Shown one piece after another: positions 1,101-21,105 of a stretch of 64,000 nt of DNA. The position numbers were made by a program, and so were the translations under genes. Under the pieces are notes generated by a model, which was given only the letters and a program-made list of their open reading frames with translations, did no database searches and was not told the DNA's origin. Every line of letters begins with the position of its first letter. The stretch's first letter is position 1. Source of the DNA: Phyllosticta citribraziliensis (Eukaryota); contig NW_027117338.1 of the NCBI RefSeq assembly GCF_038025025.1, forward strand, positions 248,001-312,000, given 5' to 3'.

Positions 1101-1631
1101 AGGCGCTCGTAGAGACTTGTTTGAATGCTGCACTGCTGGATCTGTTTTCTCTCTCCATTTCCGGGCGACTGAGATTGTGGAGGGGTTTCTTAATGTTTAC
1201 CTTACAATACGCAAATACCAATGAATGACATTGGATCAGGGCAAGCCACCACCTCGGACATACGCTCGTAGTACATTCACGACCACCACTCTGCTCTAGA
1301 CGATGATGTACCACGCAAGCGGAAGTGGTTGAGGCTTTTGAGGCTGTGCACGTGAAACGCTGCTTATGAAGATGCTGATGAAGTGAACATCCCAGACCCT
1401 GGAATTCGGGCACCGCCAAGCCGTCTACGTCATCGCAGTGCCGGTGCGTTCCTGCATCACTCACCAGGTGTTCACTTCGACCTTGCATCGCACCATCTAG
1501 AAAAGGCGAGCAATGTCCCTACACTAAGCTTCATTCAAAGCTTGTCCACCACCCACAGCACACCCTCAAAGAGCATAATTCAATTAACGTTTACGTTTCC
1601 AAGACCGCCCAATCGGGAAGCATATCCGGCC

Positions 1632-3774
1632 ATGTCGAAGAAGTTCGCCAAAAACATGCCGTGGTCTCACGGCAAGGACCAGAAAAAGGAGAACGAGCAG
1701 AGCTTGACGACGGTGCTCGAGACGCCGGAGCAGCGCGGCGACCTGACGCTCCTGCTGGCCAGCTGCACCGAGTCGATGCGCAAGACGCTGGCGGACGCGT
1801 TTGAAGTGCAGCTGGCGAGCCCCCAAAAGGCCGACGCCAGCGCCGAAAAGGGAAGCGACAAAGGCCAGAAGAGCAAAGCCGAAGCGGATCCCGTCAAAGC
1901 GGCAGCGGACGCAGCCGAGAGACAACGCAAAGAGCGCGACAAGCTCGAAAAGGAGCTATCAACGCCCAAAACGCAAGAGTTGAAGCTGGCGGCGCTGGAG
2001 TTCTTCGAGCAGTGGCGCGAGATGGTGCTGCATCGGGTCGGCGAAGCGGTCAACGCGACGGACGCGGCGAAGGCGCAGAAGAAGGAGGCGAGAGCGCAGG
2101 CGGAGCCGGAGCGCAAGACGCAAGAGAGGGAGCTGGAGCCCGAGGACGGCGACGAGCCAGCCGCTTCGGTGCTCAGCCAGCTGTATCCACCGCAGGAGAC
2201 GCCGTTGGCGCAGTTGCCGCGCGAGAAGCGCATCTTGATTTTGCACTCGTTGCTGCTGCTGTTGCTGGGGCTGGAGGCTTATTTGAGCCACTCCCGCGTT
2301 TTGCTGTTGCATGTCACGAGCAGTTTGAAGCTGGACCTCAAGCTGCTGACGGAGGATGAAGAAAAGATTGCTAAGGGGCTGTTGGAAGCGGCCAGTGAGA
2401 TGTCTGCGGACGACGAGACGAAGAAGAAGGTGGATCAAAACGCCACAAGTCGCAAATGGAAGGTTGGCATTGCCTCTGTCGCTGGAGCTGCCGTCATTGG
2501 TCTGACTGGCGGTCTTGCTGCTCCTTTGGTTGCTGCTGGTATTGGTGAGCCTTCTTCAGCTCTTTCACCCAACCGTAAACTGACAGATGCAAGGAACCGT
2601 AATGGGCGGTCTTGGACTTGGAGCCACGGCTGCTGCTGGGTACTTAGGCGCTCTGGCATCCAGCGGAGTTCTTGTCGGCGGCCTCTTTGGCGCCTACGGA
2701 GGCCGGATGACGGGGCAGATGATGGACCAATACGCGAAAGAAGTGGAAGACTTTGGCTTCATGCCATTGCATCAGCACAAGAAGCCGAAAGACTCGGAGA
2801 AGGACTTCCGACGACTGCGCATCGCCATCGGCATCTCCGGCTGGCTTACCAACAAAGAAGAAGTGGTCGAGCCCTGGCGTGTCCTTGACGCCAGCATCGA
2901 GGGATTTGGCCTGAGGTACGAGCTAGAAACCATGCTCAACCTGGGAACAGGTCTCGTCGGTATGGCCAAGAGCGCGGCATGGAACGTTGCGAAGAGCGAA
3001 GTGATAAAGCACACCGTGTTTGCCAGTCTCGCTGCGGCCCTGTGGCCTATCAGCCTTCTCAAGATTTCACGAGTCGTGGACAATCCGTTTAGCGTTGCAA
3101 AGTCGCGGTCTGACAAGGCTGGCCAGGTGCTTGCGGATGCGCTGATCAACAAGGCTCAGGGCGAGCGTCCTGTGACATTGATCGGGTACTCGCTGGGTGC
3201 GAGAGTCATCTACTCATGCTTGCAGTCTCTGGCAGACCGCAAGGCGTTTGGACTCGTCGAGTCTGTTGTCCTCCTTGGAGCTCCCACGCCCTCGACTGCT
3301 CCCGAATGGCGCCGGATGCGCGCAGTAGTCAGTGGGCGTCTCGTCAATGTGTACTCTGTCAATGACTACATCCTCGCCTTTTTGTACCGCACCAGCAGCG
3401 TCCAGTATGGTATCGCCGGACTGCAAAAAGTCGAGTGCGTCAAAGGCATCGAGAATGTTAACGTCAGCGACATGGTCAGCGGACACACGGCATACCGGTA
3501 CCTCACGGGCAGGATCCTGCGGAAGATTGGGTTTGAAGACGTGAATCTGGCGGAAGTGGAGAGGGAGGAACGAGAGATGAAGGAGGCCGAGGCTAAGGAC
3601 GCAAAGGAAAAGGAAAAGAAGAAGGGCAAAAATGAAGATGCGGAGAAGGAGGCTGCAGAGATTGAGGAGAAGGCTAGACAGAAGAGCAAGACGGGTAAGA
3701 TGGAGCATGCGACTGAGAAAATGAAGTTGGGGGGAGGGAAAAGCGCCAAGGGCACAGATGCGCCGGCAAAGTGA
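1632..3774 (+). CDS. DUF726 (TMCO4/Mil1-like) alpha/beta-hydrolase-fold membrane protein; intron 2545-2593
   Basis: KWKVGIASVAGAAVIGLTGGLAAPLVAAGIG-TVMGGLG hydrophobic segment, RPVTLIGYSLGARVI (GxSxG) and VVSGRLVNVYSVNDYIL. A 49-nt intron joins ORFs 1383 and 2587 in frame. Confidence 0.88.
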
Positions 3775-6065: not shown

Positions 6066-8178
6066 ATGTATGTGCCGTGTCGCTCATCTTGGACATTTCT
6101 GACAAGTTACAGGACGGGGAGGAGGCAGACTGGCAACCGCATCCGTGGCCCGTACGTTCTGCCCATACCCTCGCGATTGAAGCGCTCGGCGCTTTCAACT
6201 CTCCATTGCTGACCTTGCCTCAGAAATTCGGCCTTGACGGACTTTTTGGCAGTAAGTGACGCAATGTCCGAGACGAGCGTGGATATCTGACCAACGTTAC
6301 ATTCAGGCAAACAACATTTCTGCTGCGCAGATCAGAGATGACTACGAACGCCGCCGCAGAGAAGCTGCCGGTGAGCCAAATCCCGACGATACAAACGGCG
6401 ACGCCCAGGTCCCCGACGAGCCTACAACCGCACAGGCCTCGGCCTTACACAATAATGAGGAGGAGGAGGAGGTAGAAGAGGAAGAAGTGGAGGCAGAATC
6501 GTCAAGATCTTCAAAGAGAAAACGTAAGGCAAACGAGGCTGCAGCGGAAGCAAAGAAGCTGGCCAAGATCAAGAAGAGCAAGGCATTCCAGCGCCGCAAG
6601 GCTGCCCGTGACGCTGATGGCGGCGACAGCGACTCTGAGTACGACGATATCTTGGCCCGCGAGATGTACAAGAAGACTCAGCCGCCACCGGGCCAGTTAG
6701 ACAACTGCGAGATTTGCAGCAAGCGGTTTACCGTCACGTCCTACAGTAAGACAGGCCCCGATGGAGGCCTGCTATGCACCCCATGCGGCAAGGAGCTGGC
6801 GGCCGAAGAAGGCTCCAAGAAGCCGAAGAAGCAATCCCAACAGAAGAGGAAGCGCAAGCTCGAGAGCGACCGCATGGAAGCCTCACACAAGTCCCATGGC
6901 GCCAAATCCTTGCAACAGCTTTGCATCGAAAAGGTCGCGCAGCACCATGAAGACGTCGAGGAATTCGGAGAGCTGCCTGAAAAGGTGCTTGAGAGGCTTG
7001 GAGAAATCTTCTCGAAGCAGCGCGTCATGACACCTCGCACCTTGAGACTCTTCCTCCGATCAGACCTTGATGCTATCGCTGTTCATGATGCAGCATATCT
7101 TGAGACGGAGGACTACAACCACATGCTTGCCAGCGTCCCGCACATCGAAAAGATCGTCCTCAGGAACGCTTGCCAGTTCAAGGATGAAAACATCGAGTAC
7201 ATGCTGGACAAGTGCAAGAACGTACGCTTCCTCCACCTCTACGCTTCCAACCTCGTCACCGACAGGGTCTGGAAGGAACTGTTCCTTCGACAGGGTGAAA
7301 AGCTCGAGCACCTCAAGCTCGCCTGGCTTGATGCATCCTTTGACGACAAAGTTGTTGACGACATGGTCCAATTCTGCCCCAATCTGGTCGGCTTGAAGCT
7401 CAAGCTGTGCCGTCGATTCACCGCCGCTGCAATTGACTCGATCGCGCGCCTTAAAAAGCTTCAATTTCTCTCGCTCCAGACAAACGCGGATGTCGATTCG
7501 GAGTGCCTCATCAATCTCATCAAGTCTGTCGGCCATGGCTTGCAAACTTTGTCTCTTGAGCACTTCCTCGAAGCCGACGATGATGTTCTCAACATCATCC
7601 ATGACCAGTGTCGCAACTTGCGAAAGCTGCGCTTCTCAGAAAACGACTACTGTACCGACGCTGCATTCACGGCCTTGTTTACCGACTGGGCAAATCCACC
7701 TCTCAGGTTTGCCGATTTCAACTCTACCCGCGACGTCGACAACTCCAATCCAAAAGGTCCCGAGGAACCCATTGGCCTTGCGTCAAATGGATTCAGAGCG
7801 CTCATGAAACACTCGGGCGCTGGACTTGAAGTCCTCAACCTCGCGAGCTGCCGCCACATCACCAACAAGGCATTCTGGGACGTCTTTTGCGAGGGAAACT
7901 TCTACCCCAAGCTCAAGAAGATTGACATCAGCTTCTGCAACACGGTCGACACGATGATCGTTGCTGGCATTTTCAAGTCCTGTCCAAAGCTGGATCGCCT
8001 CATCAGCTTCGGCAACTTCAGCATCGAAGATGTCGTGGTTCCTCGCGGCATTGTGCTGATTGGCGTCCCCAAGGCCCAAGACGCGATTGAGCAGGTGGGT
8101 ACGGCCGTCGGCGACGATGTGGGAGGCTTCATGGACTCGCTGGGAGCCATGGGCTCGATGGTCGGCGCTGCCGCGTAA
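6066..8178 (+). CDS. RAD7: Nucleotide excision repair protein Rad7/Rhp7 (C4 zinc motif plus LRRs). Exons 6066-6067, 6113-6151, 6224-6251, 6307-8178
   Basis: Spliced N-terminus MTGRRQTGNRIRGPNSALTDFLAANNISA; PGQLDNCEICSKRFTVT...LLCTPC; SLQQLCIEKVA (BC-box-like); LRRs; C-terminal VVVPRGIVLIGVP. Confidence 0.9.
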
Positions 8179-9514
8179 GTTGATGACGCGGTGTGGACAT
8201 GACGTGGGCGTTGCACGGCGCTCGACGAATGACGGCGCTTATTTTCGCTCAACGGAACCTCAACGACAGGCTTTACGATTGCTTCTTTTTTTTGCTCTCT
8301 CGGCTTTTCGCTACAACGTGGGTTTGCTTTTCTTTGATGGTGGTGGGCTCATGGCGAAACAAACAGGACTTGCTTCTTTGCTTTCGTTTCTGGACAGGCG
8401 TAGTTTAGCACCAGCGCAAAAAGGGGTGGGATGCAATACTGCGGGCGGACCTTGAGGAGTATGGGAATAGCTTACTGGGTTATGAAAGTAGCTGGAATGG
8501 AAATTTGCTCCTTGTTCGCTTGCTCGTCGGTCTTGACGTCTTTGCCATCTCTTGAATGGGGTTCGCTCTGTGGTGGATGCTGATATGAAAAGATGCAAAT
8601 GGGTAGGGAGAAGCAGTACTGACGCTATTCCACGCAACGCCATCGATGGTGTTCAACATCATCGACCGATACTAGACTCCCTCACACTGGGAGCATCCAC
8701 GCGCACGATCAGAGCACTCACGGACAACAGACTTCCGCCCTGAAGCACGACAAAGACTGCACCTGATCCTCAACCCCGGTACCGGTACCTTCTCAGCATT
8801 CACATGCCATGCCAGCAGTCTCTGATGCCGGCACATCCACCATGACGGCGCTGTCACGCTTGTGTTATGCGTCACAGCTTGTCACACCACCACGTGCTCA
8901 CCACTTCTTCTAAGTCACCGCTGCTGCCTACCATGCCCCGTCGGTAGGTATATAAAGCCCTGCTCCCCGCCGCCGACGATGCAGCAAACCAGGGAGAAGG
9001 CGGCGGTGGCCTCCGGAAAACATTCGACAGACAAATCCTACTCGCCTGGCCTGCCCGTCTTCTACCCAGAAGAAGAATTCCACTGGCGTGGTTGGAGGTG
9101 GGCGGTTCTTGGGTGCGGCGCTTGGTAGGTGGTGTTGAGCTAGAGCGTCTGGTGGATGTAGTGAAGCAGCGTTATGGCGTGGTGATGATGTCTGACAACG
9201 TCACATTATTCCACTAATCTCTAGGTGTCTAGCTAGTTAGAGCGTGGTGCCGCCAACAGAACCAAAAAAGCCAGTCTGTAAGGCGTGGTTGCACCTGAGA
9301 GTATACCAGCTCTCTGAAAACTTTCTCTCTCACACAGATGGGAGCTGCAGTTGTCAAATTTTCTGGCGGAGGGATGATTAGCGCTTTTATTGATTTGATA
9401 GTTGGTCCGAGGGTTGCGGGTGCCTGGAGTGCTGGCCATGTGGTTGGTCTGAGTTAGTCATTTTGAGGTGTTGTTGACTGAGGTGTTGCGGTTACCTATG
9501 TTGGTGTGCGTGTA

Positions 9515-10202
9515 CACGTGGATGCTCCTACTGCGTGACGCTTCTATTGGAACCTACTAGGAGCTCATGGCTGCTGCACCTTCTTATGAAAGTAAAGAAT
9601 TCAAGCGGCTGGTCAAGAACTGTGCCTGACGTTGTAGTTAAAAAGAAGTTGGTGTGTAGTTCCCTGTTCCTAAGCCATATGGTACCGTACCAGATTAGGC
9701 AGTATCACGTGAAAATTTACCAATCAACCACTCACTAAAATAGAAGAGATCTGCAACCTCCAGCAAGCTCCAGATAACAAAGCTCACCATGCCCACAAGA
9801 ATTGATGAAATCCATCACGCCAACAAATTCACGTGCGTGAGCGCTCCCCCAACACCATTGGCGCTTTCCCTGTTTGCACATTTACCTTTTAGTTCCCCGC
9901 GGCGATCCCATCACGACATCGCGGGGCAAGATGATGGTATCCCGCCCATGTCCCGCCCTCGATGCAACCTGACGCGCAGCGCTTGTGGCGGCCGTTCGGC
10001 GACGAGAAGCCTAAGCGATCTGCTCCAAGCCTCGAGGGTCCAATTGAATGGCCGCAAAGGCAGAGGGTCTGGCTGCTGCGTGGAAAGACTGGTGCGAACT
10101 GACGACTGGGCGACTCATTGAGCTTCGGGACGGGAAATCAGGGTCCATCAACCCATCACCTCATAGCCTAAAGATAACACTTACAGTTCGCAAGTTGCGC
10201 AA
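9515..10202. promoter_or_regulatory. Putative sulfur-regulon elements upstream of the MDR-SfnG gene
   Basis: CACGTG 9515-9520, TCACGTGA 9705-9712 and TCACGTG 9829-9835 (Cbf1-type E-boxes); ATCACGCCAA 9814-9823; bZIP-type palindrome TTGCGCAA 10195-10202. Confidence 0.3.
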
Positions 10203-10411
10203 GCTCGTTCGCCATCCCAGTCGGCTTCGCGAGCTTTGATGCAGAGAGTTTTCGGAATAACCCTCCGCGCAGCTTCTCTCATCGACCATGGATCATGTTC
10301 CGACTCCTTGCTCCTCTGATCTTGCTTGTCGTCATTTGGTACATACTTAACGCACTCATTCTCCTCTGCCGTTGCCTGTTGCTCCTCTTGTCCAAACTCT
10401 GGTCTTTCGCC

Positions 10412-13140
10412 ATGCCTTCGCAAATCTCCAACGGCCCGTTCTTGGGACTGCGCCCAGACCCCGATTGCGGCAGGCAAGACGCCAACGGCCACACCAATGG
10501 TTATTCCAATGGCGTGAACGGAGCAGCTGCTACCAACGGCCACAAACCGGACACGCCGTTTGCGTCGTTGCGATCGGGCCCGACGACCCCCAATGGCTCG
10601 CAGTCAGCCAGCTGGGCTTCCCTGAACGGCCTTGGGAAAGCTCTCAACGGGCACGCAGACAAGACCAACGGAGCGCCCAATGGCGACGAATTTCTCCGCC
10701 TCGACACGCCCAAGCAGGACGTGCTCGTTCTCCACGGACCGCGCCAAAAGTACTCGCTCGAGCGGACCAAGGACATCCCCCCACTCAAGAGCGATGACGA
10801 GATCCTCATCCAAGTCCTCGCAATTGGACTCAACCCTGTCGACTGGAAGGGCCCGGACTACGGCTTTGGCCAGCCGTCGTACCCCTGGGTCAACGGGAGG
10901 GACTTTGCCGGCATCGTCGTCCGGCCGCCGCGCAAGTCGAGTCGCATTCAGAGCGGCGACGTCGTTTTTGGACCTTCGACCGACTACCGAGACGTGCGCA
11001 AAGCAGCCTATCAGGAGTATGTGGTGACGACGGATTCGAACGTTGCGCGGATCCCCAAGGGCTACAGCGTCAAGCATGGAGCCGCGCTGGGCGTCGCATT
11101 CGTTGCCGCTGCCATAGGGCTCGGTTCCTCGTTTGGATTGGATTTTGGCGATTTGGGCGCTGATGTGCCTTCTGGGCCAAATCTGCATGCTCTGTCGCGC
11201 GCTGTGGAGCGCAGTAAGATTCCCGAAGACATTCGCACCGAGGTGTTTGATAGCTTGCCATCCCACGAAAGGCCACAAAAAGGAGAATGGGTAGTTATTT
11301 GGGGAGGTTTGTCACCACTATTTGGTAGCACTTGTACGGCCGCTAAATCATCACAGGGTCTTCGACAACTGGTATCATGGCGCTTCAACTCGCCAAATTG
11401 GCAGGGCTACGCGTCGTCTCCGTAGCAGACATCGCCAAAAACGGCAAAAAGCTGCTGGACTTCGGCGCCGACATGCTCGTCGATCGATTCGACCAAAAGA
11501 GAGCGGCAGAAGTAATCCGCAGCATTACCGGAGACCAGCTGCGTTTCGCCATAGATGTGACTGGCCGAGAGTCCGCTGCAATCCTGCAAGACATTCTGGT
11601 CAAGTCGAAGAGTAGCCTGCGCCGTCATTTGCTCGGCTACACTGGCTTGCCTAAGCTCAAGAGCGCAGAGGTGCAGCAACACTTGGTCCCTATCAAACTG
11701 TTCCACAATGTGCCCGTCATCGGCGACTCCTTGATGGAATGGCTGGAGGACCTGTTGGCTTCCCAGTCGCTCAAACTGCCCGAGATAGAGGTCGCCGATG
11801 GTGGTCTCGCCGGAATCAACGCTGCCTTGGATAAAATGAGAAACGGTTTGGTCAGTGGAAAGCGAATAGTCGTTCCCGTCTCACGACCAGGCTCAGAGAA
11901 TGGCCACTCGACCCACCCCGCGACAAATGGCATCCCACCTGCTGTTGAGAATTCTTCTGATGAGTTTGCCTACGCAGACCAGCTCAATTCAGATCCGGAT
12001 CGGGTCAAGTTTGCTTACTGGGTCCCAAATGTTTCGGGTGGCCTTGTGGTTTCCAAGATTCCCCAAAGGACCGGCTGGGATCTCAAGTCCAATGAGCGAT
12101 ATGCACGTACGGCGGAACGCGTGGGTCTGGAGTACGGGCTCATGCAGATTCGCTTCATGGCCGGCTACCTTGCTGAGAATCAATTCGAGTCCGTCAGCTT
12201 CAGCCAGGCTCTGCTACACAGCACATCGCGCATCCGCATGATTGCAGCGCTGCTACCTGGTCCTTGGCAACCAGCACTTGCCGCCAAACAGATTGCCAGC
12301 ATCGATCACTACTGCGAAGGTCGCATCGACGTAAACGTCGTTTCGGGATGGTTCAAGGCCGAGATGCAGTCCATCGGGCACTGGTGGCTTGACCATTCTG
12401 AACGCTACCGTCGTTCTCGTGAGTTTATCGAATGCCTGCGTGGTGCATGGACACAGGAAAATTTCACCTATCGTGGAAACTTCTACCAGTTCAACGACTG
12501 GACGCTCAAGCCGAAGCCGCTGTCACTGCCTGGACGCCCTCATCCAGTCATTTTCCAGGGCGGCAACAGCAACGACGCTCGGGAGAACGGGGGCGCGGTT
12601 TCGGATGTTTACTTTATGAATGGCAACACACTCGAGGGCCTCATGGACCAGATCGCGGATGTAAGGGAGAGGGCGAAGAAGTACGGACGCGAGGGCCAGG
12701 TTAGGTTCGCGCTCAACGGCTTCGTCATCTGCCGCGACACGGAAGAGGAGGCCGTCCAAGTGCTGCGCGAGATCCAAGGCAAAGCGGACGTTGACGCGAT
12801 CGAAGCCTTCCGGGAGCAAGTCCAAAATGCTGGCGCCAGCACATCCAACAAGACCGGGATGTGGGCCGGGAGCGAATTCAACGACCTGGTGCAATATAAC
12901 GATGGCTTCAAGACCAAACTGATTGGCACTGCACAGCAAATCGCCGACCGGATAGTGATGCTCAAGAGCCTAGGCATCGACATCATCTTGACGGCCTTTT
13001 TGCACTATGATGACGAGATCCAGCTGTTTGGCGAAAAGGTGATACCGTTGGTGCGGCAGCTGGAGAGACAGGGCAGAGGAAAGGACAGAGATTTTGAGAT
13101 TCGCCTGACTGGAGATGTGTACAAGCAGGGGAAAAAATGA
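10412..13140 (+). CDS. Fusion of an N-terminal non-zinc MDR (enoyl-reductase/quinone-reductase-like) domain and a C-terminal luciferase-like flavin monooxygenase of the SfnG (dimethylsulfone monooxygenase) type. Intron 11307-11356; 892 aa, or 931 aa from ATG 10295
   Basis: MDR motifs AIGLNPVDWK..PWVNGRDFAGIV. Splicing restores the Rossmann motif VIWGGSSTTGIMALQLAKLAG. The frame continues without a stop into KFAYWVPNVSGGLVVSKIPQRT...QIRFMAGY.AENQFESVSFS...LPGPWQPALAAKQIASID...VNVVSGWF...DLVQYNDGFKTKLIGT, the SfnG signature (from about 12001). Confidence 0.9.
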
Positions 13141-13647
13141 CGGAGCGCCATTGTCGCGAGGTGATCGTGAGCGGCGATGGCGCATGGGTGGTGACCAAGT
13201 TCTGGAAGCGCTTTGTCCGCGTCTTGTTTGGATGCTTGTGAAGGTTGAAAATGCTGCGCTGGCTTGCTGCTTTTCTGCTGGTGTCGATAGGCTGGTGATG
13301 AGTGTTGATGAATGCGATGAGTCGAATCTCGCCAATGACTACAGTACTGTGAGAGTGCTTCATGATTGTGTGGCCAACGGTGGTGGACCAGGTGGTGGTT
13401 TTGGATTTGCCTGAGGCGACGCCAAGAGGCGAGCGCAAGCGAGTTCCGAATTTGGCGCTAGCGGGCAATCGCTTTCTTCAGCTTCGGTTTCCTCTTGTCG
13501 CGCAACGTCTTTCTCACCACCACCGACACTCCTTTCGCCCGATCGCAAAGCTCCCTCAGCTCTGAGATTCTGCCCTCGGTCGACACTCTCCCCTCTCGCG
13601 ACAAGCACCCCACTGCTTTTGTATCTCAGCAAGGGCATTCGTGTGCA

Positions 13648-15515
13648 ATGGCGGCTCAACCGGACATTTCGCAGATTCTCGCTGCGTTAGGTGCGATGAT
13701 CCGCCAGCCCAGCCTCACTTTTTCCAGAAAGCTGACATGCAGACCAGCGGCTACCAATCGAACTGGAAACACTCCATCGCAGACGCCTTCTCAACCGCCT
13801 CCTCAGCAGCAACCGCCGCCGAGTCTACCCCAGGGCTACCCGCCTGCCTACGTGCCCACCCCGCCCGCTGGCGTCCCCGCTTACGGACTGCCGCAACCCA
13901 CAAACTCTGGTAGCGTTGATTTGAGCTCCATCAAGCCTGTAAGCACCGGCTCAGTCAACTTCTCAGATGTCCTTGCGAGGGCACGCAACATTGCGACTGA
14001 GAAAGGACTGCAGCCCTTCAACGGCGGCAGGTCTAGCACCGGTAAGACTATCAAGCTCCTGCGCGTTGATTTCCAGCTGACCATGACCAGGTCCTCCTCG
14101 CGATGATCCCAGACTAGCAGGCCGACCCTATCGTCACTCGCGTTCGCGTTCGCGCTCTCCTCCTCGTCGCGACGCGTACCGCGACAACTACAACCCCTAC
14201 CGCGATGAGCGACGCGACGACCCGCGCAGATCCGGATCCGGATTCGTGCGGGACAGATCACGGTCACCTCCGGCTCGAGGCCGCGACACCTTTTCTCCCC
14301 AACGCAACTATGGCGGCAGGGACCGCTCGCCGCCCGACAGCGAAACCATCACCATCGAGTCGTCGCTCGTCGGCCTCGTGATTGGAAGGCAGGGTGAGAA
14401 CCTTCGCCGAATCGAGCAGGACACTGGCACGAGGATTCAATTCATCACTGGCCCAGAAGCGGGCGGACCGCAACGCCAGTGCAGAATTTCCGGAGCCCCC
14501 CGCGCTCGCATCGACGCAAAGCGGGAGATCTTCCGCATCATCGACGAGAATGGTGGCCAGGTTTCGCGAGACGCTCAAAGAGGCGGCAGCAGAGGACCCA
14601 AGGCTCAAGCTGCCCTCATGCATTCTGGAGAAAATAGCGTGCAGATCATGGTCCCGGACAGGACTGTCGGCCTCATCATCGGACGCCAAGGAGAAACGAT
14701 CCGCGACCTCCAGGACAAGAGCGGCTGCCACGTCAACATTGTTGGAGAAAACAAGAGCGTGAATGGCTTGAGACCAGTCAACCTCATCGGCAGCAGAGAA
14801 GCCGCCGCCAGAGCCAAGGAACTAATCCTCGAGATTGTGGACAGCGACACTCGCGCAGGCCCTCCTGCAAAGGAGAACAACCGTCCTGCGCAGCTTGACG
14901 TGGCAGGCCCTGGAAAGATCAATGACACCATCATGGTCCCGTCGGAGGCAGTGGGCATGATTATTGGAAAAGGTAAGCCTCCAATGCTGTCGTTCAGGTT
15001 CATTGCTCACACGCGCAGGTGGGGAAACAATCAAGGAGATGCAAAACTCCACAGGCTGTAAGATCAACGTCTCTCAGGCGTCTGGAGCCGACATTGAGCG
15101 TGAGATTGGTCTGGTTGGCACGCGCCAGTCGATTGAAGACGCCAAGCAGGCCATCTGGGAAAAGGTTGACACAGTGGTCAGTGACCCCGACTCCCATTCT
15201 TATTGACAACACTCTGACCGTGGACAGCGTGAAAAGAACGGCGGAGGCGGTAATAGGGGCCGTGGCCGTGACAACGATCCGTATAGTGACCGCTACTCAC
15301 AACCCCAGCAACAACCGTCGTATGCCCAACAGCCGGCGGCAGGAATGCCACCGCAGCAGCCCGCAGCCGCGGGACCGGGCGACGGTGCTGCCGCTGCAGG
15401 TGCTGACCCATATGCTATGTATGGCGGGTACCAAAACTACATGGCCATGTGGTATGCTGCGATTGCGCAACAACAACAAGGACAGACGCCAGGCCAGCAA
15501 CCTCCAGGAGCATAG
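13648..15515 (+). CDS. Three-KH-domain RNA-binding protein (FUBP/KSRP-like) with an RS/RD-rich region. Introns 13691-13747, 14042-14090, 14972-15018, 15177-15227
   Basis: KH GxxG loops VGLVIGRQGE, VGLIIGRQGE and VGMIIGKGGE; RSRSRSPP tract; C-terminal DPYAMYGGYQNYMAMWY. Confidence 0.88.
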
Positions 15516-16492: not shown

Positions 16493-16848
16493 TGATAATG
16501 TAGCCAAGACGCTGCTGACAGCTTGGACTCACGTGGGCCGGCGGCATGTGCACGAAAGCGTCAAGGATTGGCATGCCCCGCCCTGTCGGGCCTCGCCGCT
16601 CAGCGCCTCGATACATCGACGAGCTGCAACCATTGCACGTAAAAGACGAACAACCTCTTGATAAGACCTGCCTGGCGTTAAGCGACTTCTCACGCCTCCA
16701 GGTCTTTTCCTTCTCCGTTTCTTTCCTTTACTCACCTTCTTCTCCTGTGCCTTTTCCCTTTCTTTCCTACTTACCTTCCTCTTCTGCTACTAGGTCGCCT
16801 CTCATATCCCACCACATTCCCGCCACCCGGTAGCTAGACTTGCGATAA
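16493..16848. promoter_or_regulatory. Putative UaY-type site and AreA-type GATA sites in the xanthine dehydrogenase promoter
   Basis: TCGG-N6-CCGC at 16586-16599; HGATAA at 16493, 16659 and 16843. Confidence 0.5.
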
Positions 16849-16909
16849 TACTACTTTTTCCCTCTCTTGCCTTGTTCCTTCAGCTCCCATTTCCTTTCCC
16901 GCATTCGCC

Positions 16910-19900
16910 ATGGCTCCGGGCCTGGTTGACCCCGCCGTACCCGCGGCCAGCATAGGCGCCCTCGCCTCTTTAACAACAGAATACGATGACACGCTGCGCT
17001 TCTACTTGAACGGCACCAAGATAGTCCTGGACGACGCCGACCCCGAAGTCACCCTCCTGGAATACCTGCGCGGAATCGGCTTGACTGGGACGAAGCTTGG
17101 GTGTGCAGAAGGAGGCTGCGGCGCGTGCACCGTCGTCGTCTCGCAATACAACCCGACGACCAAGAAGATCTACCATGCCAGCGTGAATGCGTGTCTGGCG
17201 CCGCTCGTCAGCGTCGACGGCAAGCACGTGATAACCGTGGAGGGAATTGGGGATGTAAACGGCCCGCATCCGACGCAGGAGCGCATCGCGAAGATGAATG
17301 GAAGCCAGTGCGGGTTTTGCACGCCGGGGATTGTCATGGTCAGTTTTCTTGCTTCTGCGGCCTGCATGCCGAAACCAGATTCTAATTTTCGCAGAGCTTG
17401 TATGCGCTCTTGAGGAATAACCCCGAACCGTCCGAACACGATGTCGAAGAGGCGTTTGACGGCAACCTATGCCGTTGCACAGGCTACAGGCCAATTCTGG
17501 ACGCGGCGCAAAGTTTCAGCGTCAAAGGAGGTGGCTGCGGAAAAGCAACGGCCAACGGAGGCTCAGGATGCTGCATGGAGAAAACAAACGGGGCTGGCGG
17601 GTGTTGCAAGAATGGCGCGGCGGCAGAAAATGGAGACAGCCAACCCATCAAACGATTCACGCCGCCCGGATTCATTGAGTACCATCCGGACACTCAACTC
17701 ATCTTTCCTTCGGCACTGCGCAAGCACCAATTCAGACCACTGGCATTTGGAAACAAGAGGAAACGATGGTTCAGGCCAGTCACGCTGCAGCAGCTTCTCG
17801 AGATCAAGAGCGCTTATCCGTCGGCTAAAATCATTGGAGGAAGCACCGAGACGCAGATTGAGGTCAAGTTTAAGAATATGCAGTATACCTCGTCTGTGTT
17901 TGTAGGAGACATACCCGAGTTGCGACAATATTCGTTCAACGATGACCACATCGAAATCGGAGGAAACGTCGTATTGACCGATCTGGAAGACATTGCGAAG
18001 GAGGCGGTCGAGCATTACGGCGAGGTGAAGGGCCAACCGTTTGCCGCAATTCTCAAGCAATTGAGATACTTTGCCGGAAGGCAAATACGCAACGTGGGAA
18101 CGCCGGCCGGCAATCTGGCAACAGCCTCCCCCATTTCTGACCTGAATCCCGTCTTTGTTGCCGCCAACGCCACGCTTGTCGCAAAGAGCCTGGAGAAGAT
18201 TACGGAGATCCCAATGACCGAGTTCTTCAAGGGCTACAGAGTGACGGCGTTGCCTGCTGATGCCATTATTGCGAGTATCCGGATACCCGTGGCCAAGGAG
18301 ACGGGAGAATACATGCGCGCGTACAAGCAGGCAAAGAGAAAGGACGACGACATTGCTATTGTCAATGCCGCCTTGCGTGTATCGCTGAGTGATGCGCACA
18401 CTGTTGACGAGATCAACTTGATTTACGGCGGCATGGCACCCACTACAATTGCCGCTAAAAGGGCCGAGCAATATCTCCTCGGAAAGAAATGGACAGATCC
18501 TCAGACACTCGAGGGTGCTTTCGGTGCCCTCGAAGAAGACTTTGATCTGCGCTTTGGGGTTCCCGGCGGCATGGCTACTTACCGCAAATCGCTTGCATTC
18601 GGCTTCTTTTACAAATTCTACCACGAGACGTTGGCAAAAATCAGTGCAGAGGAAGAGGCCAGCGTCGATCATCAGGCTATTGGAGAGATTGAGAGGGAGA
18701 TATCGTCTGGACACAAGGACCACGACGCTTCCATCGCGTACGAACAGCAGGTGCTGGGCAAGGGGCGTCCACACGTTGCTGCCATGAAGCAAGTCACTGG
18801 TCAAGCCCAGTACACCGACGACATTCCCCTGCAGAAGAACGAGCTCTACGGATGCATGGTCCTCTCCACCAAGGCCCACGCCAAGTTGCTGAGCGTCGAC
18901 CCCTCCGCCGCGCTGGACATGCCCGGCGTCGTCGACTGGGTCGACCACACAGACCTGCCCAACCCCCAGGCCAACTGGTGGGGAGCTCCAGTTTGCGACG
19001 AAGTCTTTTTCGCCGTCGACAAGGTCTTCACCGCCGGCCAGCCCATTGGGCTCATCGTCGCAGACTCGGCGAAGCGGGCAGAAGCCGGCGCCAGAGCCGT
19101 CAAAGTCGAGTACGAAGAGTTGCCCGCCATCTTCACCATCGAGGAGGCCATTGAACAGCAGAGCTTCATGGACCACTTCCGTTACATCAAGAAGGGCGAT
19201 ACCGAGGAAGCGTTCAAGAGCTGTGACCATGTTTTTGAAGGAGTCGCCAGGATGGGTGGGCAGGAGCACTTTTATTTGGAGACCCATGCTTGCGTCGTCA
19301 TTCCTAAGCATGAGGATGGTGAGATGGAGGTCTGGAGTAGCACGCAGAATCCCACTGAGACGCAATCGTACGTCGCCCAAGTTACGGGCGTCCAAGCGAA
19401 CAAGATTGTGTCGAGGGTCAAGCGGATGGGTGAGTCCTGTCTCCAAAGATTTTTCTAGGAGAGAATTAAGTTGCTAATGAACGCAGGCGGTGGTTTCGGA
19501 GGAAAAGAAACTAGGTCGATACAGCTTGCTGGCATTCTTGCCGTCGCTGCGAAAAAGGCAAAGCGTCCTGTTCGCTGTATGCTCAACCGGGACGAGGATA
19601 TTCAGACCACAGGAGCTCGCCATCCCTTCCTTGGTGTGTGGAAGGTGGGAGTCAATAAAGATGGCAAGATTCAGGCACTCGACGTGGACATTTTCAACAA
19701 CGCCGGATGGACGCAGGACCTCAGTGGCGCCGTCATTGACAGGGCGTGTACGCACGCCGATGGAGTCTACAAGATTCCCAATGTCCACGTCAGGGGCAGA
19801 GTATGCCGGACAAACACCGTCTCGAACACGGCGTTTCGTGGGTTTGGCGGTCCTCAAGGCATGTTCATTGCAGAGAGCTACATGGAGGAGGTTGCGGACC

Positions 19901-21105
19901 ACCTCGGCATGCCCGTCGATGAGTTCCGCCGCATCAACATGTATCAACCTGGTGACATGACGCATTTCAACCAGGAACTCAAGGACTACTATGTGCCGCT
20001 CATGTACCAGCAGGTCAAGGACGAGGCAGAGTATGAGCGCAGGCGTAAAGAGGTGGACGAATTCAACGCGACGCACAAGTGGAACAAGCGTGGCCTTTCC
20101 ATCATCCCCACCAAATTTGGCATCTCCTTTACTGCCCTCTTCCTCAACCAGGCTGGTGCTCTGGTCCACATCTACCACGACGGATCTGTTCTTCTCGCTC
20201 ACGGTGGAACAGAAATGGGCCAAGGACTGCACACTAAGATGATCATGATTGCGGCCGAGGCGCTCAAGGTGCCAGCAGAAGACATTCTCATCTCCGAGAC
20301 AGCCACGAATACTGTCGCAAACACCAGCTCCACCGCCGCCTCGGCCTCTTCGGACCTCAACGGGTACGCCATTTGGAACGCGTGCGCGCAGCTCAACGAG
20401 CGCCTTGCGCCGTACCGCGAGAAACTAGGGCCCACCGCGACCATGAAGGAGATTGCGCACGCCGCGTACTTTGACCGAGTCAACCTCTCTGCCAACGGCT
20501 TCTACAAGACGCCCGACATCGGGTACACGTGGGGCGAGAACAAGGGAATGCCGTACTTCTACTTCACGCAAGGCGTGACGATGGCCGAGGTAGAAATCGA
20601 CACGCTGACGGGCGACTGGACGTGCCGACGCGCCGACATCAAGATGGACGTGGGGCGCAGCATCAACCCAGCCATCGACTACGGGCAGATCGAAGGCGCG
20701 TTCGTCCAAGGGCAGGGCCTCTTCACGACCGAGGAGATGCTGTGGCACCGCGCGTCCGGCTCCCTTTTCACCCGTGGCCCCGGCGCCTACAAGATCCCCG
20801 GCTTCCGCGACATCCCGCAGGTCTTCAACGTCAGCCTGCTCAAGGACGTCAATTGGGAGAATCTGCGCACCATCCAGCGCAGCCGCGGCGTCGGCGAGCC
20901 GCCGCTCTTCATGGGGTCGGCCGTCTTCTTTGCCATAAGAGACGCGCTCAAGGCGGCTCGCAAGCAGTGGGGCGTCGAGGATGTCTTGAATCTGAGAAGC
21001 CCGGCTACGGTGGAGCGCATTAGGGTTAGTTGCGCCGACCCCATCATTCGTCGCGCAATGGTGGAGCCGAGGGAAGGCGAGAAGAGCTTCTTCGTCAGTA
21101 TATAG
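16910..21105 (+). CDS. hxA: Xanthine dehydrogenase (2Fe-2S/FAD/Moco). Introns 17339-17394 and 19430-19486
   Basis: [90 protein letters not shown]. Confidence 0.97.

Follow-up and report, generated by a model that had tools for sequence, protein, structure and literature searches.

Two stop-to-stop frames on the + strand of the window (the whole 64-kb stretch of DNA that was analysed), at 10178..11425 and 11347..13140 in the ORF listing, raise the question of whether an MDR reductase and a bacterial-type SfnG monooxygenase are made here as one protein and, if so, what the first does for the second. The preliminary description of the locus had joined the two frames by removing an intron. This arrangement is confirmed by an RNA-derived contig of 4821 nt from run X1, which matches the window with no mismatch over 10100-11304 and 11355-13300 and has roughly 1.1 kb more upstream of 10100. 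Between these segments lies a 50-nt GT..AG gap that, after shifting of ambiguous bases, coincides with 11307-11356 (GTTTGT at the start, CAG at the end); the contig is unbroken over both halves of the gene and removes exactly the intron drawn across 11306/11357. Excision of this spliceosomal intron (11307..11356, + strand), situated between IWG and GSSTTG, fuses ...VVIWG to G-SSTTG with the frame kept and restores the MDR nucleotide-binding motif IWGGSSTTG, as had been predicted. Public Phyllosticta model P0269 has the identical splice (98.3% identity over aa 40-510), and a contig from run X5, a declared RNA-seq of a relative 90-95% alike, begins at 11355 with a loose end of 16 nt, 14 of which agree with the end of exon 1.

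Exon 1 (10295..11306, + strand) carries the N-terminal region and the first half of the MDR and ends one base into codon 338. Exon 2 (11357..13140, + strand), contained in the single open frame 11347..13140, carries the second half of the MDR, a linker, the SfnG domain and a tail, and ends with a TGA stop codon at 13138-13140 (+ strand). The spliced coding sequence of 2796 nt has no internal stops; its product would measure 931 aa if translation starts at ATG 10295, and 892 aa if it starts at the conserved position 10412.

In public Phyllosticta annotations the locus appears as two models, a "partial" MDR and an LLM (P0269/P0270 versus P0001/P0006), as if the two halves were separate proteins, arising from separate messages or from an internal start, with no fusion in the cell. 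The depth of the X2 contig, which climbs toward the 3' end, could be taken in the same sense, but it is a weak measure that 3' bias explains equally well; neither this gradient nor the uncovered bins in X2, X5 and X6 carry evidential weight. The split models, however, overlap each other or have no stop codon, whereas a single intron-free contig covers both halves and the C-terminal half of the MDR shares one stop-free frame with SfnG. Furthermore, of 25 fused-type metagenomic loci, 24 read through the junction in an open frame although the linker varies freely (the 25th has an intron immediately behind the beginning of the SfnG domain), and fused proteins are annotated in other genera: both parts are found in 58 of the 120 best public relatives (best 120 of 3714), and MDR+LLM proteins account for 79 of the 86 "longer" relatives of a bacterial SfnG. 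For all these reasons the locus is a single spliced fungal gene joining a zinc-free MDR to a bacterial-type SfnG, and two separate products are extremely improbable. The data show that the public Phyllosticta gene models divide this gene wrongly.

The N-terminal region comprises two segments. Residues 1-39 (10295..10411, + strand) form an optional hydrophobic, transmembrane-like extension, with Kyte-Doolittle 19-residue means of up to 2.6. The start in most annotated homologues is not ATG 10295 but the next Met; a similar in-frame hydrophobic extension is present in Pseudocercospora and Fulvia models and in 6 of 14 distinct metagenomic loci, and translation from ATG 10295 may yield a membrane-anchored isoform. 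It is followed, at aa 40-135 (10412..10699, + strand), by a start motif, MPSxxSxxPFLxLRxDxxCGR, conserved in an alignment of the window protein with 30 fused homologues, and by an Asn/Gly-rich low-complexity spacer. In the alignment, the motif was not found in free-standing MDR orthologues; the matching N-terminal part of one such orthologue (residues 1-47) is disordered in its AF2 model, with pLDDT under 50. Between the two domains, the variable Pro/Ser/Asn-rich linker (11890..12003, + strand) ends with a conserved Y(A/H)DxxNSDPxR sequence leading into the SfnG domain.

Profile searches gave matches to ADH_zinc_N and to ADH_N, Bac_luciferase and TIGR04021, the last three being of the kinds that the preliminary description had proposed to look for. 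The SfnG-type luciferase-like monooxygenase domain, of the class C two-component flavin monooxygenases, occupies 12004..13065 (+ strand). It scores 547.5 bits with NCBIfam TIGR04021, the SfnG equivalog, over model positions 1-349 of 350, well above the curated cut-off of 382.95 bits, while the runner-up family, SsuD, scores merely 131-133 bits; the match to PDB 8t0u has an E value of 1.9e-135. The SfnG identity originally assigned to this domain is therefore upheld. As described for the SfnG structure (PMC11588060), DMSO2 is bound by W121, R55 and N297 together with an aromatic cage made of W11, Y60, F267, W285 and Y296. The window protein has all eight unchanged; among the fungal rows none of them is retained in fewer than 46 of 49 fused or 56 of 58 free-standing sequences, and in the bacterial SfnG rows the count is 80 of 80. 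Also identical are Q53, N116, H136, Y140, S189 and F204, a set that includes the O2 pocket (N116 and the Q53 network). The FMN phosphate/ribityl site (H136, Y140, S188, S189, N284) is identical except for S188N and N284M, changes common to all or nearly all fungal rows and found as well in 15 of 80 bacterial SfnGs, mostly from Actinomycetota. The C-terminal half is a true member of the SfnG family and, judged from these residues, has an intact DMSO2 and FMN site.

Beyond this domain, the protein carries a C-terminal tail, GRGKDxxxEIxLTGDVY... (13066..13137, + strand). In the translation of exon 2 (593 residues), the TIGR04021 match stops at 569 and the 8t0u alignment at 573; the tail that follows is conserved in the alignment of fused homologues and also in the consensus of an alignment including free-standing fungal SfnG. 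Such a tail, specific to the fungal clade, would suit a domain that acts on another sulfone, on a sulfonate or on a non-sulfur substrate, with the MDR helping in a fungal-specific pathway. So would the long branch on which the fungal clade sits (0.36-0.68 substitutions per site) and the range of dialkylsulfones reported to be accepted by P. fluorescens SfnG (PMC11588060); moreover, fungal FMNH2-dependent sulfone/sulfonate monooxygenases are flagged as uncharacterised by Linder (2018, PMC5857272), in whose words the family "has yet to be characterized". We nevertheless consider a different substrate distinctly unlikely, given the identity of all the DMSO2 contacts and of the Q53/N116 oxygen-site residues, their retention across fused and free-standing fungal rows, the TIGR04021 score, and the sulfur-related genes (DszC/SfnB-like, MsrA, TauD) that neighbour related fungal loci.

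The MDR domain (aa ~136-515; 10700..11889, + strand, interrupted by the intron) is recognized by Pfam ADH_N in exon 1 (E 1.2e-10) and by ADH_zinc_N in exon 2 (3.7e-10), where Bac_luciferase (6.7e-57) comes next without any break in the frame. Ahead of the Rossmann motif the family has an insert of its own, about 50 aa long. The nearest solved structures are zeta-crystallin (1yb5) and LovC (3b6z), and a Foldseek search with the AF2 model of an orthologue (pLDDT 81, pTM 0.82) placed LovC at the top (E 1.7e-23, TM 0.79). At the positions which we take to be those of the zinc ligands of ADHs, GRD replaces GHE and NPVDWK replaces the Cys-containing motif, as in alignments of zeta-crystallin and LovC. 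By these sequence marks the MDR half is of the zinc-free enoyl-reductase/quinone-oxidoreductase (LovC/zeta-crystallin) type, in agreement with the zinc-ligand loss noted earlier.

The domain had been described as a host NADPH oxidoreductase. The zinc-free reductase type stands, but the cofactor is put in doubt by Asp362 (codon 11428..11430, + strand; invariant column D271 of alignment A2), which closes Rossmann strand beta-2 and, in the orthologue model, comes immediately behind strand E265-270. The corresponding residue is Cys in the NADPH-using LovC and an invariant Asp in the MDR family of the window. An Asp in this place commonly marks enzymes that prefer NADH, which hints that the cofactor is NADH and not NADPH, with Asp362 as the candidate determinant. 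A profile search with FMN_red (PF03358) and Flavin_Reduct (PF01613) gave no match in either half of the protein; thus, the MDR may work like a canonical flavin reductase yet belongs, by profile, to neither family.

One could imagine that the MDR is catalytically silent and only scaffolds the monooxygenase, promotes its oligomerisation or senses nucleotides for it; its substrate cannot be named, and the predicted substrate loop of the orthologue model (residues 95-111) has pLDDT under 50. The conservation pattern argues otherwise. Across fused, adjacent and solitary orthologues that share about 50% identity overall, the Rossmann motif, NPxDWK, GRD and dozens more columns are invariant, as is typical of an active enzyme, and the invariant charged residues include those of STDYRD and VPIKxFH; we argue from this for a working active site. 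Solitary orthologues, besides, would have nothing to scaffold. A silent MDR is accordingly viewed as highly unlikely.

The fused architecture, which the preliminary description had thought might exist in other fungal annotations, proved to be common there. Fused forms, among the best 120 of 3714 matches, come from Dothideomycetes, Arthoniomycetes and Lecanoromycetes, while Leotiomycetes and some lichen fungi have MDR and SfnG as two genes lying next to each other. Consecutive locus tags or accessions were found for the two genes in seven unfused species (Hymenoscyphus, Chaenotheca, Candelaria, Mollisiaceae sp., Stipitochalara, Phlyctema and Xylogone), and three metagenomic loci show the MDR followed in tandem by SfnG, at a spacing of about 0.9-1.1 kb. 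By gene content, adjacent pair and fusion make up a Rosetta-stone pattern. The MDR-SfnG pairing is thus widespread in fungi and not unique to this locus. Solitary MDR orthologues, 47-58% identical to the window MDR, occur in six Eurotiales-like metagenomic loci (L083, L084, L103, L108, L109 and L110), in which no SfnG lies within 6 kb on either side; the MDR therefore has, or is able to have, a role of its own apart from SfnG. The best 120 of 3714 SfnG matches include no protein from Eurotiales.

Bacterial SfnG sequences for phylogeny were drawn from the related-loci search, clustering at 50% having reduced the family, at E <= 1e-30, to 152 representatives, which included many fragments and were of little use for a tree. 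The 108 fungal rows, whether from fused or free-standing proteins, all group in one clade. When outgroups were included in the tree, this clade (support 100) falls within a 73-row SfnG clade (support 97) that also holds Actinomycetota and Pseudomonadota clades, without a resolved branching order among them. The nesting among bacterial SfnGs, proposed earlier as a check on horizontal acquisition, was thereby recovered, and since the fungal sequences form one clade inside a bacterial family, the transfer from bacterium to fungus is likely to be old and to predate the fusion. What does not hold is a recent transfer tied to the fusion, as the single 108-row clade indicates. This clade, and the neighbouring position of the genes where they are unfused, suggest an order of acquisition, gene pair and then fusion.

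Gene context offers a hint as to what the MDR contributes. Among 111 neighbouring ORFs of 30 bacterial sfnG loci, there is no MDR; FMN_red is present at 8 of the 30 loci and Flavin_Reduct at one, usually directly upstream of sfnG. In 12 related fungal loci the situation is reversed: none of 92 ORFs matches FMN_red or Flavin_Reduct, whereas an MDR is found in 12 of 12, upstream of or fused to SfnG in the eight that have one. Some of the fungal loci contain additional oxygenase genes, of the DszC/SfnB-like type in L104 and L122 and of the NtaA/DszA-family LLM type in L085, L100 and L135. In the bacterial DMS pathway, as reported in PMC13352529, a single NADH:FMN reductase, MsuE, drives all such oxygenases. 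The window itself, screened through frames of about 130 aa or more and by tblastn, contains no flavin reductase, msuC or ssuD, as had been observed at the outset, nor any other sulfur-scavenging gene; the gene's neighbours are housekeeping genes (DUF726, an Rhp7-like gene, a KH-domain protein and xanthine dehydrogenase). With such neighbours here and sulfur-related ones at related loci, a secondary-metabolite role is not favoured.

Because the bacterial reductase contexts and the fungal MDR contexts complement each other, it is plausible, at somewhat less than an even chance, that the MDR serves SfnG as its NAD(P)H:FMN reductase. This role is further favoured since the fungal clusters add more FMNH2-dependent oxygenases and since none of the 86 longer relatives of a bacterial SfnG carries a canonical reductase fused to it. 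A more specific proposal, which we put forward tentatively and with less assurance, is that the MDR belongs to a new, flavin-less class of flavin reductase, which would move hydride from NADH directly onto FMN, either free or shared, and supply the resulting FMNH2 to the SfnG domain tethered to it. We know of no MDR that is a flavin reductase, and found none acting as one in the literature; likewise, the literature gave no biochemical study of the MDR-SfnG architecture, as the preliminary description had supposed.

The main competitor of the reductase role is that the MDR reduces or oxidises a pathway metabolite, with FMNH2 coming from a general cellular flavin reductase. It might reduce an activated C=C bond beside a sulfonyl group, convert an aldehyde, or carry out an NAD+-linked sulfinate oxidation. 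Several observations lend themselves to this reading, and some of them count against flavin reduction. Carbon compounds or quinones are the substrates of all near relatives of the MDR (LovC, zeta-crystallin, MECR and PKS enoyl reductases), the nearest solved ones reducing C=C bonds or quinones; the lysine of NPxDxK aligns with Lys54 of LovC, mutated in PDB 3gqv ("K54S"); the invariant charged residues of STDYRD and VPIKxFH could accommodate a ligand that is small and polar or anionic; some MDR orthologues have no SfnG neighbour; and ordinary FMN reductases are described elsewhere in fungi (Linder 2018, PMC5857272). The lack of another sulfur-scavenging gene in the window also counts against the reductase reading. 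The CYS3/MetR-type motif ATGRYRYCAT, matched twice in the window and equalled in 14 of 100 shuffles, has no match upstream of the gene, a result that points neither way. On the other hand, the zinc ligands of known MDR aldehyde/formaldehyde dehydrogenases are absent, on which ground a formaldehyde or aldehyde dehydrogenase was rejected; the SfnG pocket is conserved for a substrate of the size of DMSO2, which has no C=C; MsuC-type sulfinate oxidation is already covered by a DszC/SfnB-like gene in the tandem clusters; and the place held by the MDR upstream of sfnG is usually that of an FMN reductase in bacteria. On balance, a metabolite-directed MDR appears somewhat unlikely.

Returning to the reductase partnership as the preferred reading, we infer from sequence and gene context the DMSO2 substrate, the flavin-reductase role of the MDR and its NADH preference. 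The SfnG domain, C-terminal in a protein of ~900 aa, would be an FMNH2- and O2-dependent monooxygenase that most likely cleaves the C-S bond of dimethylsulfone or of a similarly small dialkyl sulfone, DMSO2 being converted to methanesulfinate and formaldehyde for the purpose of sulfur scavenging. The N-terminal MDR would most likely fill the role of the bacterial SfnF/MsuE flavin reductase, taking hydride from NADH (perhaps NADPH) to reduce FMN, which the tethered monooxygenase domain would then use. Following an old transfer of sfnG, the two genes would have been neighbours until they were joined in an ancestor shared by many Dothideomycetes and lichen-forming fungi. That the enzyme might be "self-sufficient", as originally hypothesized, is suggested circumstantially by the complementarity of its gene context with bacterial reductases.

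The repeated occurrence of one particular MDR fused to or beside SfnG is a clean genetic hint as to how reduced flavin is supplied in fungi. If the hint proves true, two-component flavin enzymology would gain a new class of reductase and the first self-sufficient class C two-component monooxygenase, with a route for powering SfnG, DszA/NtaA-like and DszC/SfnB-like oxygenases in a large part of the Ascomycota; biocatalysis would gain a single-chain C-S-cleaving oxygenase, and fungi (lichens, rock-inhabiting and plant-associated Dothideomycetes) would enter the terrestrial DMS/DMSO2 sulfur cycle. Should the MDR not be a flavin reductase, the pairing would even then suggest that sulfone use in fungi involves a so far unrecognised NAD(H)-linked step.

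Compared with P. fluorescens SfnG (PDB 8T0U/8T0W; PMC11588060), the window domain shares the TIGR04021 family, ~60% identity over its whole length, and like residues in the DMSO2 cage, the FMN phosphate site and the N5-oxygen pocket. Unlike its bacterial counterpart, it is the C-terminal domain of a ~900-aa protein and has an extra C-terminal tail, as well as S188N and N284M, found in Actinomycetota SfnGs. Whereas the SfnG two-component system has a separate SfnF/MsuE-type reductase nearby, the window gene has none in its vicinity (frames of at least ~130 aa over 64 kb). The reductases SfnF/MsuE/SsuE (FMN_red, PF03358) and those of the HpaC type (Flavin_Reduct, PF01613), whose bacterial position upstream of sfnG is that of the MDR in fungi, would be functional analogues of the MDR, although unrelated to it in fold and family. 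The best matches of the MDR in sequence and fold are instead LovC (3B6Z/3B70) and zeta-crystallin-type quinone oxidoreductases (1YB5; Zta1, 3QWB), zinc-free like the window MDR and bearing the same NPxDxK and GxDxAG motifs, but at an identity of merely ~20%. The window MDR family differs from LovC by the ~50-aa insert, a long disordered N-terminus and the Asp (Cys in LovC) after beta-2, and is tied to a flavin monooxygenase where LovC is tied to a polyketide synthase. Among two-component flavin monooxygenases there are natural fusions of reductase and oxygenase, such as StyA2B, in which one chain combines the oxygenase with the partner that uses NAD(P)H. MDR-SfnG would embody the same "self-sufficient" concept; however, StyA2B-type fusions combine a recognised flavin reductase with an oxygenase of another class, whereas the gene described here combines an MDR with a class C TIM-barrel monooxygenase.

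The forward strand carries two stop-to-stop frames at this locus, 10178..11425 and 11347..13140; ATG 10295 is the first in-frame ATG of the upstream frame and TGA 13138-13140 ends the downstream one. Removal of a 50-nt intron at 11307-11356 (+ strand; 5' GTTTGT, 3' CAG) joins codon 337 (GGA, Gly) to a split Gly codon (G/GG) followed by TCT TCG ACA ACT GGT, restoring the motif ...VVIWGGSSTTG..., and gives a stop-free coding sequence of 2796 nt for 931 residues. This intron, and with it the single gene proposed in the preliminary description, was borne out by RNA. In sequencing run X1, a contig of 4821 nt (depth 596, zero mismatch) spans 10100-11304 and 11355-13300 and skips 50 nt bounded by GT..AG, a gap that corresponds to 11307-11356 after shifting ambiguous bases; the contig joins the exons across 11306/11357 and is continuous over both halves. 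The library type of X1 is a guess only, but the contig is transcript-derived, as the intron is missing from a sequence otherwise identical to the window. It continues for about 1.09 kb upstream of 10100 (window positions about 9011-10100) and about 0.58 kb beyond 13300; the upstream part is either a very long 5' leader or a merger with a neighbouring transcript. In X5, a declared RNA-seq run whose source is a relative 90-95% alike, one contig begins at 11355 and bears a 16-letter loose end that fits the end of exon 1 at 14 of 16 positions; the relative thus uses the same splice. Quite apart from the RNA, one open frame holds both the latter half of the MDR fold and the entire SfnG domain. The same passage, from the MDR C-terminus (…GKRIVVPV) to …NSDPxRxKFAYWVPNVSGG, is open and in frame in 24 of 25 fused-type metagenomic loci, the 25th being in frame until an intron just within the SfnG domain; the linker across these loci is Ser/Pro/Thr-rich and varies freely. 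Within what contigs can show, the MDR and SfnG halves are one spliced message.

The Pfam Bac_luciferase profile matched exon 2 residues 217-541 (+ strand, E 6.7e-57), in the same uninterrupted frame as the preceding ADH_zinc_N domain. The NCBIfam SfnG equivalog TIGR04021 scored 547.5 bits against a cut-off of 382.95, covering model positions 1-349 of 350, while the next families, SsuD-type alkanesulfonate monooxygenases, reached only about 131-133 bits. Alignment to P. fluorescens SfnG (PDB 8t0u) was domain-wide (E 1.9e-135), and identity to 80 bacterial SfnGs from reference genomes was 56-62%. Active-site residues described in the structure paper (PMC11588060) were mapped through the pairwise 8t0u alignment and a 188-sequence alignment. 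The DMSO2 contacts named there (R55, W121 and N297, with the cage W11, Y60, F267, W285 and Y296) are all unchanged in the window, and Q53, I54, N116, V118, G120, H136, Y140, G186, S189 and F204 are identical as well. With this score and these contacts, the assignment of the C-terminal half to SfnG stands. Four mapped positions are changed: T52M (variable everywhere), I88L, S188N and N284M. N188 and M284 are found in every one of the 58 free-standing fungal rows; of the 49 fused rows, 47 have N188 and 48 have M284, and 15 of 80 bacterial SfnGs are in this state too. The two are thus natural family variants, not decay. Twelve of these 15 are labelled Actinomycetota; the others are a Rhodococcus record (labelled Cyanobacteriota by the taxonomy look-up), Alicyclobacillus and one Burkholderia scaffold. 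The latter, a 17.9 kb scaffold filed under Burkholderia multivorans (L021), holds the only Pseudomonadota-labelled SfnG in this state, which elsewhere marks Actinomycetota, Alicyclobacillus and fungi; it possibly reflects transfer or a mis-binned scaffold. On sequence grounds, the window domain would be a functional SfnG whose pocket has the right size for dimethylsulfone or another dialkyl sulfone about as small.

In the N-terminal half, ADH_N matched exon 1 residues 167-255 (+ strand, E 1.2e-10) and ADH_zinc_N exon 2 residues 5-72 (+ strand, E 3.7e-10). Among solved structures it is closest to human zeta-crystallin (1yb5) and to LovC (3b6z), the lovastatin trans-enoyl reductase; both were also retrieved with a profile of 14 free-standing MDR orthologues (LovC E 2.2e-21). 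An AlphaFold2 model of one free-standing orthologue, P0275 (pLDDT 81, pTM 0.82), returned LovC first in Foldseek (E 1.7e-23, TM 0.79), followed by quinone oxidoreductases, enoyl reductases and alcohol dehydrogenases. GRD occupies the GHE site of zinc alcohol dehydrogenases and NPVDWK the NPSDTK site of LovC; as previously stated, the zinc ligands are absent. Peculiar to the family are an N-terminus that is disordered, about 50 extra residues inserted ahead of the Rossmann motif, two invariant motifs (STDYRD and VPIKxFH), and an invariant Asp right after Rossmann strand beta-2 (window Asp362, codon 11428-11430). An acidic residue at this place commonly contacts the hydroxyls of the adenosine ribose and makes NADH the preferred cofactor. 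By contrast, LovC, which uses NADPH, has a Cys where Asp362 is invariant; the MDR would, from this residue, favour NADH. Altogether, the feature is real, its limits are correct and both halves were correctly named.

The best 120 of 3714 relatives of exon 2 (E <= 0.001) comprised 34 proteins with ADH_N, ADH_zinc_N and LLM (one of them with ADH_N and LLM only), 24 with ADH_zinc_N and LLM, and 62 with LLM alone. The architecture thus does exist in other fungal annotations, as had been surmised, with 58 of these 120 carrying an MDR part and the LLM. Fused carriers among the matches listed include Botryosphaeriales (Neofusicoccum, Lasiodiplodia, Diplodia), Mycosphaerellales/Capnodiales and rock-inhabiting black fungi (Pseudocercospora, Fulvia, Peltaster, Friedmanniomyces, Cryoendolithus and others), lichens of the Arthoniomycetes/Lecanoromycetes (Chrysothrix, Coniocarpon, Teloschistes, Gyalolechia) and one species of Chaetothyriales. 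When long relatives of a bacterial SfnG were sought, 79 of 86 matches were MDR+LLM proteins and none of the 86 carried FMN_red or Flavin_Reduct; carriers gained in this way were Zymoseptoria, Cercospora, Zasmidium, Lecanosticta, Elsinoe and the basidiomycete yeast Sporobolomyces (fused forms P0400 and P0402). Some relatives are auto-named "FMNH(2)-dependent dimethylsulfone monooxygenase" in public records. No paper on the fusion architecture or on an assayed fungal SfnG was found in the main texts of open-access literature and preprints, in line with the earlier remark that no biochemical characterisation was known. The window gene is a member of a large, conserved, uncharacterised fungal family, which makes the single locus less surprising and the question more valuable.

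Several records stand apart. Three Mycena (Basidiomycota) proteins (P0064, P0103, P0271), which between them represent both halves, nest in the Botryosphaeriales clade, and a 977-aa fused protein (P0014) is filed under cork oak ("Quercus suber"); contaminating ascomycete DNA or recent transfer probably accounts for these. Rare other SfnG fusions (P0394, 840 aa; P0401, 665 aa; P0404; P0435) involve a Cys/Met-metabolism PLP enzyme, an ACAD-fold domain and ABC-transporter ATPase domains, and may be real fusions or merged gene calls.

Among the best 120 of 3714, the closest relatives are from Phyllosticta: a P. citrichinensis model is 98% identical over aa 40-510, and those of P. citricarpa and P. 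capitalensis are 94% and 90% identical. Public annotation in this genus presents the locus as two overlapping or "partial" models (P0269, P0270, P0001, P0006), with a "partial" MDR model ending at ...GKRIVV with no stop and an LLM model that takes an internal Met (aa 345 or aa 498) as its start. The split models are wrong and the RNA contig is a single spliced message. What is new here is that RNA directly supports the fusion in a genus where public annotation divides the gene.

Most annotated homologues start with MPSxxSxxPFLSLRxDxxCGR, corresponding to Met40 of the window protein (ATG 10412). Residues 1-39 (10295-10411) form a strongly hydrophobic segment, in which Kyte-Doolittle means over 19 residues reach 2.6. 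Comparable in-frame extensions ending just before the MPS start are found in models of two annotated genera, Pseudocercospora and Fulvia, and ones of 38-54 aa ending exactly at it in 6 of 14 distinct metagenomic loci (L085, L087, L088, L096, L099, L100), the remaining 8 being without an in-frame upstream ATG. Translation may begin at either ATG 10295 or ATG 10412, and a long membrane-anchored isoform could possibly exist alongside a short soluble one.

The two halves also occur as separate proteins. Free-standing MDR orthologues (420-460 aa, 49-57% identical, with the insert and all motifs kept) were found in Leotiomycetes, Eurotiales, Onygenales, Xylona and several lichen fungi. In seven species, MDR and free-standing SfnG bear consecutive locus tags (Hymenoscyphus 7131/7132, Chaenotheca 2651/2652, Candelaria 7117/7118, Mollisiaceae sp. 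13457/13456) or accessions (Stipitochalara KAE9362609/610, Phlyctema KAL3419900/899, Xylogone KAH8802680/681). The two are five tags apart in Diplocarpon, and in Oculimacula the best MDR match lies on a different contig from SfnG. In metagenome contigs, an MDR-profile scan of 456 stretches gave relatives in 290, and 80 loci were retained. Where the MDR was at least 60% identical to that of the window and enough downstream sequence was present, SfnG followed 112-218 nt downstream on the same strand (fused type) in 22 of 22 loci; in the other 12 of this class the contig ends within about 500 nt past the MDR. Twenty loci with 46-59% identity comprised 3 fused, 3 tandem with a separate SfnG about 0.9-1.1 kb downstream (L095, L104, L122), 7 lacking SfnG in at least 1.5 kb of downstream sequence, and 7 with too short a flank. 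Six of these 7 loci without SfnG (L083, L084, L103, L108, L109 and L110), which are closest to Penicillium (Eurotiales-like), have no SfnG within 6 kb on either side of the MDR. No SfnG was seen in 26 loci with identity of 45% or less (12 with at least 1.5 kb downstream). At L103 and L108 the solitary MDR lies between a UNC-93/MFS-like gene and an aconitase, and at L110 a TauD-like gene and another MDR are nearby. The MDR-SfnG association is old and recurrent, not universal. This Rosetta-stone relation, adjacent in some classes and fused in others, is likewise new.

SfnG trees were made with FastTree (108 fungal, 30 bacterial and 10 other rows) and IQ-TREE (quick, 76 rows, LG+C20+F+G4), with agreeing results; these are quick-search trees without a clade test, and their bacterial sample, the 80 loci closest in sequence to the queries, is biased to near relatives. 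All fungal SfnG domains fall into one clade (support 100, stem 0.36-0.68), which meets an Actinomycetota clade (100) and a Pseudomonadota-plus-Myxococcota clade (94-97) in an unresolved trichotomy; outside these are an Alicyclobacillus sequence and one unnamed representative. The single fungal clade fits one old bacterium-to-fungus transfer from a donor that the trees leave unresolved. The horizontal acquisition originally proposed is compatible with this, although the transfer would be old and earlier than the fusion, with fused and free-standing fungal SfnGs in the same clade. In the SfnG FastTree, a subclade of 75 rows (98) takes in the fused forms as well as some free-standing sequences from Chaetothyriales and lichens. 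In the MDR tree (FastTree, midpoint root), the fused forms make up one clade (98), whose sister is the adjacent-pair group of Leotiomycetes, Chaenotheca and Candelaria, with the Eurotiales-type solitary group outside both. A single fusion event is the simplest reading, although later fissions or mis-annotated models may also play a part.

The window gene is solitary and outside any cluster. Its neighbours are a DUF726 gene (1356-3774), a Rhp7/Rad7-like gene (6256-8178), a KH-domain gene (14087-15061) and a xanthine dehydrogenase gene (16838-21105, + strand, at least three frames with introns). Farther genes encode an SPX protein, an AAA ATPase, a BING4/WD40 protein, a short-chain dehydrogenase and an aromatic amino acid ammonia-lyase (54313-56298, + strand); the xanthine dehydrogenase and the lyase are ordinary metabolic genes unrelated to the fusion. 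No second LLM, ACAD-fold gene or flavin reductase was found in the 64 kb by tblastn or among frames of about 130 aa or more, confirming the reported absence of flavin reductase, msuC and ssuD.

The bacterial comparison covered 30 sfnG loci, a single one from each genus except Pseudomonas and Burkholderia with two each, and 111 of 167 ORFs within about 3 kb. FMN_red lay beside sfnG in 8 loci and Flavin_Reduct in 1, mostly as the gene immediately upstream; 15 loci had ACAD-fold genes of MsuC/SfnB/DszC type and 5 a second LLM, and none of the 111 ORFs had an MDR domain. In 12 fungal loci the MDR was present in all, and none of 92 ORFs was FMN_red or Flavin_Reduct. The MDR is the sole nicotinamide-site component of the fungal clusters and fills the reductase's place; these observations point one way. 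That it acts as the flavin-reductase partner of SfnG is, on the sequences, a tentative proposal to which we give a little less than an even chance. Quinone- and enone-reducing MDRs give hydride to conjugated systems, and transfer to the isoalloxazine ring, also conjugated, would be plausible chemistry. However, we know of no MDR flavin reductase, and none was found in open-access literature or preprints. The nearest MDR relatives act on carbon substrates, and solitary orthologues indicate that the MDR can function without a neighbouring SfnG. A further point against the reductase role is that fungi possess ordinary FMN reductases, according to one report (PMC5857272). A role in metabolite processing seems less likely to us than the reductase role, and that of a silent scaffold highly improbable.

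Other sulfur-related genes accompany the pair in fungi. An NtaA/DmoA/DszA-family LLM (TIGR03860) lies within about 2 kb of the fused gene in 3 of 5 fused loci with long flanks (L085:9484-10695, + strand; L100:9327-10130, - strand; L135:3833-5189, + strand), MsrA (PMSR) genes near it in L091 and L100, and TauD is also among fungal-locus neighbours. In a gene table from Exophiala spinifera, a DszC-like protein and "SfnG" are two accession numbers apart (PMC11778650), a spacing that would be compatible with one cluster. In the bacterial DMS-to-sulfite pathway, as presented in PMC13352529, TIM-barrel and ACAD-fold oxygenases are all driven by one NADH:FMN reductase, MsuE. The mutual exclusion of MDR and canonical reductases beside sfnG, in 12 fungal and 30 bacterial loci, is new. 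Upstream of the MDR and SfnG genes, 2 of the 3 tandem loci carry a DszC/SfnB-like ACAD-fold gene (L104:1898-3377 and L122:354-1913, both - strand), forming three-gene clusters reminiscent of the bacterial sfn/msu operons.
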